Of a stretch of 64,000 nt of DNA, positions 30,201-38,453 are shown piece by piece. Location of the stretch: the NCBI GenBank assembly GCA_963714095.1, contig OY970230.1, positions 831,907 through 895,906 of the forward strand, read 5' to 3'. The position numbers and the translations under genes are program-made. This DNA comes from Candidatus Gottesmanbacteria bacterium (GTDB lineage: Bacteria; Patescibacteriota; Microgenomatia; UBA10105; UBA927). Each line of letters begins with the position of its first letter. Within the stretch, counting starts at the first letter, position 1. The notes beneath the pieces are model-generated. The model was given only the letters and a program-made list of their open reading frames with translations, was not told the origin of the DNA and ran no database searches.

Positions 30201-33200
30201 GTGGAGCAAACGGTCCCACCGGAACAACCGGTTCAACCGGTGCCACCGGAACAGCCGGTCCTACGGGAGCAACAGGAACCAACGGTCCGACAGGCGCAAC
30301 CGGAGGCGCAGGTAGTGGTGGAGCAAACGGTCCCACCGGAACAACCGGTTCAACCGGTGCCACCGGAACAGCCGGTCCTACGGGAGCAACAGGAACCAAC
30401 GGTCCGACAGGCGCAACCGGAGGCGCAGGTAGTGGTGGAGCAAACGGTCCCACCGGAACAACCGGTTCAACCGGTGCCACCGGAACAGCCGGTCCTACGG
30501 GAGCAACAGGAACCAACGGTCCGACAGGCGCAACCGGAGGCGCAGGTGCCAATGGTCCAACAGGTGTCACCGGATCTACCGGTGCCACCGGAACAGCCGG
30601 TCCTACGGGAGCAACAGGAACCAACGGTCCGACAGGAGCAACCGGAGGCGCAGGTGCCAATGGTCCAACAGGTGTCACCGGATCTACCGGTGCCACCGGA
30701 ACAGCCGGTCCTACGGGAGCAACAGGAACCAACGGTCCGACAGGCGCAACCGGAGGCGCAGGTGCCAATGGTCCAACAGGTGTCACCGGATCTACCGGTG
30801 CCACCGGAACAGCCGGTCCTACGGGAGCAACAGGAACCAACGGTCCGACAGGCGCAACCGGAGGCGCAGGTGCCAATGGTCCAACAGGTGTCACCGGATC
30901 TACCGGTGCCACCGGTGTTGCCGGTCCTACGGGAGCAACAGGAACCAACGGTCCGACAGGCGCAACCGGAGGCGCAGGTGCCAATGGTCCAACAGGTGTC
31001 ACCGGATCTACCGGTGCCACCGGAACAGCCGGTCCTACGGGAGCAACAGGAACCAACGGTCCGACAGGCGCAACCGGAGGCGCAGGTAGTGGTGGAGCAA
31101 ATGGTCCAACCGGTGTCAACCGGATCTACCGGTGCCACCGGAACAGCCGGTCCTCCCAGGGAGCGACAGGAACCAACAGGTCCGACAGGCGCAACCGGAG
31201 GCGCGGGTGATCGATGGAGCAAACGGTCCCACCGGAACAACCGGTTCAACCGGTGCCACCGGAACAGCCGGTATTACGGGAGCAACAGGAACCAACGGTC
31301 CGACAGGCGCAACCGGAGGCGCAGGTGCCAATGGTCCAACAGGTGTCACCGGATCTACCGGTGCCACCGGAACAGCCGGTATTACGGGAGCAACAGGAAC
31401 CAACGGTCCGACAGGCGCAACCGGAGGCGCAGGTAGTGGTGGAGCAAACGGTCCCACCGGAACAACCGGTTCAACCGGTGCCACCGGAACAGCCGGTCCT
31501 ACGGGAGCAACAGGAACCAACGGTCCGACAGGCGCAACCGGAGGCGCAGGTAGTGGTGGAGCAAACGGTCCCCACCGGAACAACCGGTTCAACCGGTGCC
31601 ACCGGAACAGCCGGTCCTCCGGGAGCAACAGGAACCAACGGTCCGACAGGAGCAACCGGAGGCGCAGGTAGTGGTGGAGCAAACGGTCCCACCGGAACAA
31701 CCGGTTCAACCGGTGCCACCGGAACAGCCGGTCCTACGGGAGCAACAGGAACCAACGGTCCGACAGGCGCAACCGGAGGCGCAGGTAGTGGTGGAGCAAA
31801 CGGTCCCACCGGAACAACCGGTTCAACCGGTGCCACCGGAACAGCCGGTCCTACGGGAGCAACAGGAACCAACGGTCCGACAGGCGCAACCGGAGGCGCA
31901 GGTAGTGGTGGAGCAAACGGTCCCACCGGAACAACCGGTTCAACCGGTGCCACCGGAACAGCCGGTCCTACGGGAGCAACAGGAACCAACGGTCCGACAG
32001 GCGCAACCGGAGGCGCAGGTGCCAATGGTCCAACAGGTGTCACCGGATCTACCGGTGCCACCGGAACAGCCGGTCCTACGGGAGCGGCTACAGGAACCCG
32101 ACGGTTGGACCGGCGCAACCGGAGGCGCAGGTGCCAATGGTCCAACAGGTGTCACCGGATCTACCGGTGCCACCGGTGTTGCCGGTCCTACGGGAGCAAC
32201 AGGAACGGTCCGACAGGCGCAACCGGAGGCGCAGGTGCCAATGGTCCAACAGGTGTCCACCGGATCTACCGGTGCCACCGGAACAGCCGGTCCTACGGGA
32301 GCAACAGGGACCAAAGGTCCGACAGGCGCAACCGGAGGCGCAGGTAGTGGTGGAGCAAACGGTCCCACCGGAACAACCGGTTCAACCGGTGCCACCGGAA
32401 CAGCCGGTCCTACGGGAGCAACAGGAACCAACGGTCCGACAGGCGCAACCGGAGGCGCAGGTAGTGGTGGAGCAAACGGTCCCACCGGAACAACCGGTTC
32501 AACCGGTGCCACCGGAACAGCCGGTCCTACGGGAGCAACAGGAACCAACAGGTCCGACAGGCGCAACCGGAGGCGCAGGTAGTGGTGGAGCAAACGGTCC
32601 CACCGGAACAACCGGTTCAACCGGTGCCACCGGAACAGCCGGTCCTACGGGAGCAACAGGAACCAACGGTCCGACAGGCGCAACCGGAGGCGCAGGTGAG
32701 CCAATGGTCCAACAGGTGTCACCGGATCTACCGGTGCCACCGGAACAGCCGGTCCTACGGGAGCAACAGGGACCAAACGGTCCAACAGGAGCAACCGGAG
32801 GCGCAGGTGCCAATGGTCCAACAGGTGTCACCGGATCTTACCGGTGCCACCGGAACAGCCGGTCCTACGGGAGCAACAGGAACCAACGGTCCGACAGGCG
32901 CAACCGGAGGCGCAGGTGCCAATGGTCCAACAGGTGTCACCGGATCTACCGGTGCCACCGGAACAGCCGGTCCTACGGGAGCAACAGGAACCAACGGTCC
33001 GACAGGCGCAACCGGAGGCGCAGGTGCCAATGGTCCAACAGGTGTCACCGGATCTACCGGTGCCACCGGAACAGCCGGTCCTACGGGAGCAACAGGAACC
33101 AACAGGTCCGACAGGCGCAACCGGAGGCGCAGGTGCCAATGGTCCAACAGGTGTCACCGGATCTACCGGTGCCACCGGAACAGCCGGTCCTACGGGAGCA

Positions 33201-36200: not shown

Positions 36201-38453
36201 CGATTCTACGACTGCAACGTCCACCGCAGCAATCGTGTTGTACGGCTCGGCTGACCCAGCAGGTGGAACCGCAGGTAAAAAAGGCGATATCTTTATGGGG
36301 AATAATCTTCAGCTGGGCTGGAATCAGGGAGCAGCGCAGACAGATTCGATATACGGAGGTACGGATGATATACTTTATTTTGGGGCCACCGCACAAACGG
36401 CGGCTGTAAACCTCGGAGCATCAAGCGCAACAAGTACCGTCAATCTCGGGACTGGAGAAGGCGCCCAGACTATCAATATCGGGAGCGGCACGACGAATGC
36501 TAAAACCATTAATATCGGCACCGGCGCTGCAATGGCAAACGGGATCAATATCGGAGGAACCGGTGCCAACGTTATCGCGATCGGCAATACCCAAACCGCA
36601 GGATCCCATAAGTATCGGCGGAGCCGCCGCTACGAGTACAACAATAAACATAGGGGGAACTACGTCGTCAAACGGCACGATTACGATCGGTCAGGCTGCG
36701 GGTGGTCAATCTATCAATATAGGAACAACTGCCGGCACTGCCACACGTACTGTTAGTATCGGCAGCAGCCCGTCAGCAGGCACTGAGACGATTACCCTCG
36801 GAGGTACGCCTACCAGCACCGGTCTTCAGGTAATCAATGTCGGCGCCGGCGGCAACGTGGCGGTGAACGCGCGTATTGTTAATATCGGCAACGGATCTAT
36901 CAACACGAAAGTGCTTTTCTTCCCGCGCACGGCGAACGTCGGGAGTGAATTTAACTCAAACGGTCAATTTGCCATCGGATCAATGGGTACCGCCGGCACC
37001 ACCAACGGCCGTATCTGGATTTATGCCAGCAACACAATTTTCCGGTGGAATTCCGTCGGAAATTCCGCCGACTATTCCGAATATATTGCCCAGACTGAGC
37101 CTTCCGGCCCCGGCGACGTTATGGTCGTAGACTCCACAGCAACGCAAAGTGTGAGGCGTTACCACGGGCCGTACGAAGATAATATTTTAGGAGTCATAAC
37201 CACGACCGGTCTCGGATACAACAATGATTCCGACGCGCCGGACCATCACAATGACAATCCGGCTTGGGCAAACGTCGGTATGCTTGGCCAGGTATCCATT
37301 AAAGTGTCAAGCGAAAACGGAAGCATCCAGCCCGGTGACCGTTTGACGAGCTCCAGCCAGCCCGGCGTTGCCATGAAAGCCACACGGGCCGGACAGATCG
37401 TCGGGCGTGCGCTTGACAGTTGGTCAAATACAGATCCTACACAGGTTGGGATGATCAAAGCACTCATTTCACCGTCATACTACGATCCAGCTGAGGCGAC
37501 GGCGAGCGACTCGGATTTGCAAACACTCCGGCTTGAAGCGGCAAATTCAACGCCATACGTTGCACAGATTCCGTTTGCTAAAGCAGGGGCTGCTGAAGCC
37601 GCAAGCAACTTCGGCAAATATTCCATTCAGGGAATCGTCAGCAGCGCCGTGAAAGCGATGGGGGAGTTTACCAACCTTGTTGCTGCGAATTTCAAAGCGG
37701 GTGTGGTGCAAACCAACGAAGTGACGACCAATACGCTGACTGCCAATCACGGAGCGTTTGGTGACATCGCCGGAAGCCAGGCGGTCGTGGATTCTCTGTC
37801 AGTCGGTACGATTACGCCGGATGCAAGCGGGGCCGTTCATGTCCACTCGGGCGCGGACGGCAAGGTATCGATTCTGGATTCCAACCAGAACGAAGTTTTC
37901 TCGGTGGACGCGGCAGGGAACGGCTATTTTGCCAGGAACGATTACGGCGGATAAATTGAAAGTCAACCAAATAGAAGGATTGGATTTGTCTTCCTTATTC
38001 AATAGCGCAACACCAAGCTCTGTACCGGTGGCTACGTCTACGGCAAACCTGAGTATATTTGACTGGCAGGTGACATTTAACGATGTGGTCACGTTTGTGA
38101 AGGACGTCATCATTCAGGGTCAGTTGACGATAAATAATACGCTGAAGGTGTTAGGGGACATTTCAATATTCGGCCATATTACCGTGAATACTGATACGGC
38201 AGGCGTTGCGGTAATTCCGAGCTCCGCCACGAGTGTGGACGTGCCGTTTGAACAGCCGTTTGCGACTCCTCCGATTGTTACGATTTCATTGGTATTGCCG
38301 CAGGCGACTGACAGCGCATTTATGGCAGAAGGGGTGCAGGCGGCTGTCACGAACGTGACGACAACAGGATTTACCATTGTACTCAATACGCCGGTACCCA
38401 AAGACCTCACCTACAATTGGTTCGCCCTGGCGGTGAATAACAGGAAAAAATGA
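27257..38453 (+). CDS. Giant collagen-like triple-helix repeat surface fibre protein, about 3,730 aa if contiguous. As assembled it is interrupted by roughly 25 frameshifts and one in-frame stop after position 31100.
   Basis: ATG 27257 has SD AGGAGA 4 nt upstream; the ORF track's upstream GTG at 27227 is less likely to be the true start. Two N-terminal hydrophobic segments are present. The ORF stays open to 31210 and includes about 930 aa of GXY. The GXY frame then hops between all three forward frames (ORFs 31214.., 31596.., 32131..36756 and others). A non-collagenous C-terminal region follows (36100-37954, then frame 3 to the stop at 38453), ending ...[29 protein letters not shown]. Confidence 0.7.
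28320..36110 (+). repeat. Coding tandem repeat array of about 865 Gly-X-Y triplets, built from 108-nt and 117-nt higher-order units.
   Basis: Unit A encodes [36 protein letters not shown]. Unit B encodes [39 protein letters not shown]. Copies are degenerate at 28320-28900 and near-identical in the middle. There are no stop codons in any of the six frames. Confidence 0.9.

Follow-up and report, generated by a model that had tools for sequence, protein, structure and literature searches.

The window analysed here is a stretch of 64,000 nucleotides (nt) from Candidatus Gottesmanbacteria (assembly GCA_963714095.1, contig OY970230.1, positions 831,907 to 895,906). We found in it one long collagen-like fibre gene, of which the distal part is broken by dozens of small insertions and deletions (indels), and we consider below where these breaks come from. 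The G+C content was about 47% across the window and 60-65% in the 28-36 kb region, with a strong A-over-T skew there. The fibre gene and its parts were located as follows.

27257 to 38900, + strand: collagen-like fibre gene in its true extent, about 3,880 amino acids (aa) after indel removal
27257 to 28300, + strand: N-terminal non-collagen domain of about 350 aa, from translation and peptide mapping
28301 to 31084, + strand: in-frame collagen-like region, degenerate Gly-X-Y triplets and then nine 117/108-nt units without indels (30077-31084)
31085 to 35816, + strand: disrupted tandem array of 42 units, 18 of them of wrong length, with 23 indel events, 21 of which are frame-shifting
35817 to 36117, + strand: distal degenerate collagen repeats, from pairwise alignment to the sibling contig L001 and from the Gly-X-Y translation of the sibling
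36118 to 38897, + strand: C-terminal non-collagen part, with a repeat-rich domain, a weak Peptidase_G2-like stretch, an H-lectin domain, a Pro/Thr linker and an SH3_3 domain

The order of the encoded protein is N-terminal membrane anchor, collagen region, C-terminal domain, H-lectin, Pro/Thr linker and SH3b. The start codon (ATG at 27257) agreed with the gene call in the sibling contig L002 and with peptide mapping, and peptide mapping placed the stop codon (TAG) at 38898-38900. A single hydrophobic/transmembrane segment was predicted in the N-terminal domain at 27395-27457. The sequence of this domain is identical among the window, L001 and L002, and a Pfam search with it (27257-28300) found nothing above threshold. 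The region 28301-31084 matched the Pfam family Collagen (PF01391) with E=4e-97 and 318 bits, the curated cut-off being 27.2. In the C-terminal part, H_lectin was found at about 38230-38430 (8e-9) and SH3_3 at about 38740-38895 (2.4e-10). Peptidase_G2 stayed below threshold there (E=0.013) and was above the cut-off in the homologues P0003 and P0006. The C-terminal domain had no match in a PDB sequence search or in a PHROGs search.

The initial annotation had taken the SH3b domain as a gene of its own, which turned out to be wrong, for it forms the C-terminal end of the fibre. The sibling open reading frame (ORF) reads through: at positions 1134-7064 of contig L005, one frame of 1976 aa runs from the collagen units through the C-terminal domain, the H-lectin and the linker to SH3_3. 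It stays Gly-X-Y up to the array end, so that the uninterrupted triplets expected of a PF01391 protein are present. In the window, the ORF 32131..36756 (1541 aa) is an alternative frame that is stop-free by chance.

The array was cut at a conserved GGAGGCGCA anchor, and each unit was aligned to a 117-nt (A) and a 108-nt (B) consensus. Collagen-like triplets are degenerate from near 28300, near-identical units of 117 nt (A, 39 aa) or 108 nt (B) begin at 30077, and the array closes with two 99-nt units (C). Higher-order structure was also found: a block AAA-B*-B-B-B(va)-B occurs three times (units from 30194, 32343 and 33240) and a block A-B-AAAAA-B-B(va) twice (from 31206 and 34588), which shows that multi-unit blocks were copied. 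Two adjacent units share a frame-keeping change of CCT to ATT (Pro to Ile in GPTG), at 31273-31274 and 31381-31382, which may be real or an error.

As the initial annotation had stated, the first part of the gene is in one frame: the ORF listing showed 27227..31210 open, and no indel was found in the units of 30077-31084. From 31085 onwards the frame is repeatedly lost, and the undisrupted units remain 100% identical to the consensus. All the breaks cited earlier in the array could be located, including the extra A of gtcaaccgg in the unit 31085-31205, an inserted C at 31570, a 4-nt deletion at 32204 and an inserted T at 32838. Four dense clusters of substitutions and indels lie at 31085-31205, 32084-32111, 34217-34232 and 34646-34657, of which the last two correspond to the clusters given before at 34210 and 34645. 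The cluster 34217-34232 holds the TAA reported to be in frame, and this codon (34218-34220) does lie in the local Gly-X-Y frame, in which the unit at 34137 begins. A recurrent insertion of A is found in the context CCAAC-A-GGTCC, just before GGTCCGACAGG, and gives the motif CCAACAGGTCC in place of the consensus CCAACGGTCC. It occurs six times (31173, 32545, 33099, 33563, 33672 and 35251), and each copy is no more than 10 nt from where the six had been placed before.

Beyond the array, about 16 disruptions were found in the distal non-repeat part of the fibre gene. Alignment to a sibling assembly gave ten frame-shifting indels in 35855-36046; within 35855-35946, the window is short of 14 nt relative to L001 through nine separate deletions of 1-3 nt, and it has one 1-nt insertion. 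These nine small deletions have the look of poorly corrected long-read sequence. More distal indels against the sibling are at 36605 (+C), 37846/37848, 37932 (+C), about 38445-38446 (-G) and 38642 (+C); the two breaks expected from the earlier work at 36600 and 37925 are those at 36605 and 37932. A TGA at 38451 in the window is created by three private changes at 38442-38452. The disruption of the gene is thus real in the contig, and the count of about 25 given in the initial annotation was too low, the total being roughly 35-40 after sibling alignment.

Sibling assemblies were fetched by exact-protein look-up with intact neighbouring genes, and the comparison spans 14845-61157 of the window. 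Look-ups of this kind with the window ORFs 8227-9507, 46947-48365, 57774-58562 and 27257-31207 gave no match. Two assemblies came from ENA: contig_73729 of ERZ25039480 (552 kb; here L001 and L005) and contig_55471 of ERZ25039479 (24.3 kb; L004 and L012). Names of this form we take to be typical of Flye. The others were Logan contigs, which are k-mer assemblies of single runs: L002, L008 and L010 from run ERR11594402, and L003, L009 and L011 from run ERR11571142. Nothing was found in the literature under the run accession. L008 was thus built by a different method from the other two assemblies, L004 and L005. The contigs of ERR11571142 are not error-free themselves, as L011 (at window 17721) and L003 (at window 28519) each have a private 1-nt deletion, one of which splits a PEGA-domain gene. 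The genes for tRNA-Pro(CGG) and tRNA-Arg(CCT) are divergently oriented at 14694-14880, and both Logan contigs begin there.

Through this comparison, which had been proposed earlier as a check, we found that the indels, apart from those common to the window and L004 (see below), are absent from the siblings and that the long ORFs are restored there. The differences private to the window are confined to one patch, delimited by the three-way and four-way alignments, the comparison with L008 and statistics.

28717 to 48593, no strand: patch of differences private to the window

The first private substitutions are at 28717 and 28859, and these are the only two within 28301-31084. In the three-way alignment over 36150-49730, private columns numbered 42 substitutions and 20 indels in the window, 6 and 4 in L004, and 4 and 1 in L005. 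L004 and L005 agree with each other at the window-private columns of this region, and L008 is the same as L005 and contradicts the window at each private site of 40088-48593. The window-private columns in 36150-48593 group into 26 events, or 2.1 events per kb. Indels occur in 14 of them, with net changes of plus or minus 1, plus or minus 2 or +5 and never a multiple of 3, and isolated single substitutions make up only five. Within the patch, the stretch 40606-46351 (5.7 kb) is clean.

Both flanks are exact. On the left (14845-28716), there were zero private differences against L010, L002 and L001: the window equals L010 at 100.000% over 14845-26831 and shows no difference from L001 and L002 over 15284-28716. 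On the right (48594-61157), no difference from L008 was found, and L009 also matches over 49855-53570. In these 26.4 kb of flanks, 55 events would be expected at the patch rate and none was observed (P about 1e-24).

Genuine decay is reproducible between assemblies, genome-wide and accompanied by many substitutions. Here, the private events are not reproducible, and the divergence is 0 in the flanks against 2.1 events per kb in the patch. What marks an assembly or consensus artefact was found instead: the differences are not reproduced elsewhere, they are bounded by assembly structure, and their signature is error-like. Only the split of a GT4 glycosyltransferase gene (described below) is reproduced across the assemblies, while six array indel sites and a +G at 40774 are shared with L004 alone.

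In the last 24 units of the array, counted from the distal end, the A/B/C order and the marker substitutions (the Val-Ala variant, and a C to A change 16 nt from the unit end) are the same in the window, L004 and L001. No indel was found in any of these units of L001. It could be argued that the clean array of L001 is a collapsed average, and this was ruled out for the last 24 units, since order and markers match the window unit for unit; further upstream, L001 may be collapsed. L004 has fewer array indels than the window, and most of them are in units in which the window has indels too. The sites shared by these two contigs, numbered from the array end, are offset -85 in unit 1, offset -27 in units 5, 14, 19 and 20, and offset -114 in unit 20. 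The two contigs insert different bases at unit 19, the window an A and L004 a G, and at unit 20 they differ by GGG against GG. The -27 insertion is also present privately in the window and privately in L004, on A and on B units, with or without the C to A marker. This distribution of the recurrent A insertion fits a consensus-error hot spot in a context that is repeated about 50 times, rather than one mutant unit that has spread.

A second contig covers much of the same segment, and it contains an abrupt junction.

25190 to 49844, no strand: segment also represented by contig_55471 (L004/L012), with an abrupt 49844|25190 junction

L004 aligns to 31933-49844 and then jumps to 25190-28829, the junction being at 18001/18002 of L004 with at most 1 nt shared. 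The Logan contigs of ERR11571142 break close to the junction points (L011 ends at 24913, L003 starts at 25153 and L009 starts at 49855), and run ERR11594402 assembles straight through both 25190 and 49844. Over 25190-28829, there are 39 private columns in L004 and one in the window. Over 36150-47858, L004 has zero private differences and the window has nearly all of them. Over 47859-49519, L004 has ten private columns, and the last private differences of the window are at 48120-48593. The two contigs were thereby shown to be complementary, each appearing error-rich largely where the other is clean. We infer that the window and contig_55471 come from the same or closely related reads.

These results can be brought together in one proposed mechanism. 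The segment of 25-50 kb would have been assembled twice, once in the main contig and once in a 24-kb side contig joining 49844 to 25190. The array of about 7.5 kb, made of near-identical 108/117-nt units, would prevent unique read placement, and polishing reads might then be split or mis-placed between the two copies of the segment. Where the reads were drawn to one copy, the other would have kept the quality of a long-read draft. Context-specific miscalls would recur at the same unit offsets, namely -27 from the unit end (just 5' of GGTCCGACAGG), -85 and -114.

We therefore favour, at a probability of roughly 0.88 and from sequence comparison, the reading that the frame disruptions are consensus errors of one assembly and not mutations, and that the underlying gene is one long fibre gene of a Microgenomates bacterium with a small genome. 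Errors are preferred to decay because the private differences are contradicted by other assemblies, the patch is bounded, the differences bear an error signature and the siblings restore the ORFs. The earlier leaning toward sequence-quality problems is in this way borne out, by the contradicted private differences, the bounded patch and the clean sibling array. Long-read consensus indels fragment gene calls, especially at low coverage, and the window resembles such cases (IDEEL-type, PMC9262707; Kastor, PMC12007338) in private, indel-dominated breaks and in ORFs that can be restored. Classical consensus indels are genome-wide and lie mainly in homopolymers, whereas those of the window are in one 20-kb patch, mostly outside homopolymers, and come with dense substitution clusters, which points to locally poor polishing rather than to a global chemistry bias. 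We also looked for a common motif, such as a methylation site, across the error sites; GGTCC is near many of the array indels and is not near the non-repeat errors, so that no common motif is proposed.

Several observations weigh against this reading. A fully uninterrupted fibre ORF was found in none of the assemblies compared. L001 is without about 3.1 kb of the window's array and has its own garbled junction of about 80 nt with a 2-nt insertion; the unit number is 51 in the window and 25 in L001, so the two arrays differ either by a true polymorphism in copy number or by mis-assembly of one of them. The six array indel sites common to the window and L004 are absent from L001. Five non-repeat variants, including the +G at 40774, are likewise common to the window and L004 against L005 and L008, so that these two contigs either have reads in common or stem from a slightly different strain, and a few indels could in that second case be real. 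The GT4 split, which lies outside the error patch, is either a true frameshift or a systematic error common to all four assemblies. Finally, that the window and the 24-kb contig come from one assembly is a presumption, and coverage and per-site read support are likewise deduced.

It is improbable, though the best of the alternatives, that in part of the population of this Candidate Phyla Radiation (CPR) bacterium the segment 25190-49844, with the fibre gene and its glycosylation genes, exists as a tandem pair or as an excised circle, as the junction in L004 would suggest, the window being in part a redundant decaying copy and not error alone. If this were true, the array copy number and some real frameshifts would differ between lineages. 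Slightly less credible is the full form, in which the 24.6 kb are truly duplicated in tandem or copied as a circle, the window is the redundant decaying copy and L004 represents parts of the intact one. The sharp 49844|25190 junction in L004, the breaks of the ERR11571142 contigs near both points and the division of error-rich and clean parts between the window and L004 would be expected from it. However, the errors are not sorted to one copy, as 47.9-49.5 kb has private differences in both contigs, and the signature of the differences is that of long-read noise. Moreover, ERR11594402 reads through both points, and one chimeric read could make such a junction.

Genuine pseudogenisation of the fibre and glycan-island genes, with the siblings as a healthier strain, has a still smaller chance of being right. 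The five variants and six array indel sites common to the window and L004 might mean that more than one lineage is present; the GT4 split is the same in every assembly, and the +G at 40774 is in two contigs. Nevertheless L004, which is closest to the window, is without all 31 private columns of 40060-48593 and all those of 36150-40060. With zero divergence over 26.4 kb of flanks, about 60 mutations could not have had time to arise in 20 kb, and the changes form tight clusters rich in indels, isolated substitutions being few. The other repeat units stay at 100% of the consensus. A genuine pseudogene-rich reductive genome is that of Mycobacterium leprae; the window is like it in having adjacent frameshifted genes, and differs in that its breaks occur in a single patch of a single assembly.

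Least of all do we expect that a unit with the A insertion spread by unequal crossing-over or gene conversion, the recurrent change being genuine even should the rest be errors. Six window units do carry the same insertion, three of which have it in L004 as well, and multi-unit block copying is shown by the higher-order structure, but the insertion sits on A and B backgrounds, whether or not the C to A marker 11 nt downstream is present, it is not consistent among the higher-order copies (units 8-12 are clean, and units 27-31 and 35-39 differ), and L004 has G for the window's A in one unit while L001 has none in the matching units. Programmed frameshifting or phase variation by repeat slippage was considered as well and rejected, for there are dozens of heterogeneous indels and not one site, and they are not reproduced in L001 and L005.

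The consensus errors favoured here would also affect genes next to the fibre gene, of which four were examined in the assemblies.

38920 to 39650, - strand: dockerin-domain gene, with private changes at 39183-39199 and a GC insertion at 39378-39379 in the window, intact at 242 aa in siblings
39690 to 41845, + strand: PMT_2-like membrane glycosyltransferase gene, 717 aa in L005 and L008, broken in the window
44940 to 46900, - strand: spermine-synthase-domain gene, 652 aa in L004, L005 and L008, with +A at 46352 and +5 nt at 46707-46711 in the window
48995 to 50135, - strand: GT4 glycosyltransferase gene, split into Glyco_transf_4 and Glycos_transf_1 parts, with identical DNA in the window, L004, L005 and L008

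The private indels of the PMT_2-like gene are at 39811, 40004, 40102, 40144-40145, 40525 and 40544. In addition, the extra G at 40774 (CGTAG[G]CTACGG) splits this gene; it is in the window and L004, not in L005 and L008. Four substitutions show the same two-against-two distribution (43784, 45630, 45634 and 46174), and the pattern at these five positions suggests two lineages or two read sets. The GT4 frameshift lies near 49540-49590 in all four assemblies. Among the neighbours listed as broken in the initial annotation, the dockerin gene, the gene called ArnT-like (here PMT_2-like) and the gene called PABS (here spermine-synthase-like) are indeed broken and are intact in siblings; only the separate SH3b gene has to be withdrawn. 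The reductive decay of a surface-glycan island, which had been offered as a second explanation, found no support for four of the five neighbouring genes, and the fifth, the GT4 gene, is split outside the window's errors.

Elsewhere in the window, overlapping same-strand ORFs at 19.3-22.6 kb were considered as frameshift fragments, and this was rejected, as the sibling gene calls show intact overlapping glycosyltransferase genes. The stretch 6990-8530 holds only ORFs of 100-140 aa on both strands, without Pfam matches, and may be another patch of low quality or a run of small genes; Pfam searches with the small ORFs of 6.9-8.5 kb and 12.6-14.0 kb were uninformative except for Maf at 14005-14655.

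The neighbours of the fibre gene include PMT_2-like, GT4, DegT-aminotransferase, methyltransferase and dockerin genes, and this neighbourhood suggests a glycosylated surface fibre. A search with the C-terminal 926 aa gave relatives of up to 64% identity, without near-identical sibling proteins. They belong to Gottesmanbacteria (64%), Daviesbacteria, Chisholmbacteria and other Patescibacteria (P0001-P0015), are 35-64% identical over 50-84% of the 926 aa and carry Collagen, Peptidase_G2, H_lectin and SH3_3. The locus of a metagenome-assembled Gottesmanbacteria genome was 68% identical, and a scan of GTDB genomes gave only one Gottesmanbacteria and one Saccharibacteria relative. The Microgenomates homologues have the same domain set and are 550-1,400 aa long, whereas the window gene has a larger and more homogeneous array. 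Microgenomates were already represented in this family, to which the fibre gene adds a new member of unusual size.

Collagen-like surface proteins of other bacteria include BclA of the Bacillus anthracis exosporium, with GPT-rich repeats, and Scl1/Scl2 of Streptococcus pyogenes. The fibre is like them in its long Gly-X-Thr-rich region, N-terminal anchor, globular C-terminus and a repeat number that is not the same in all assemblies. Non-collagen domains, one of which would nucleate the trimeric triple helix in such proteins, are present at both its ends. It differs in being far longer (about 2,600 aa collagen-like), in its C-terminus of H-lectin, SH3_3 and a weak Peptidase_G2-like stretch, and in its CPR host.

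Annotated as it is, the contig would give a string of pseudogenes and a spurious SH3b gene instead of one fibre gene and an apparently intact glycosylation island, and anyone who concluded from it that the genome is decaying reductively would be mistaken. An otherwise exact contig can contain a patch that is locally unpolished, and the trigger here appears to be the combination of a long tandem array and a duplicate side contig. For the organism, the finding is of modest biological interest: one collagen-like fibre, tipped with lectin and SH3b domains, occupies about 1% of a CPR genome of about 1.09 Mb.

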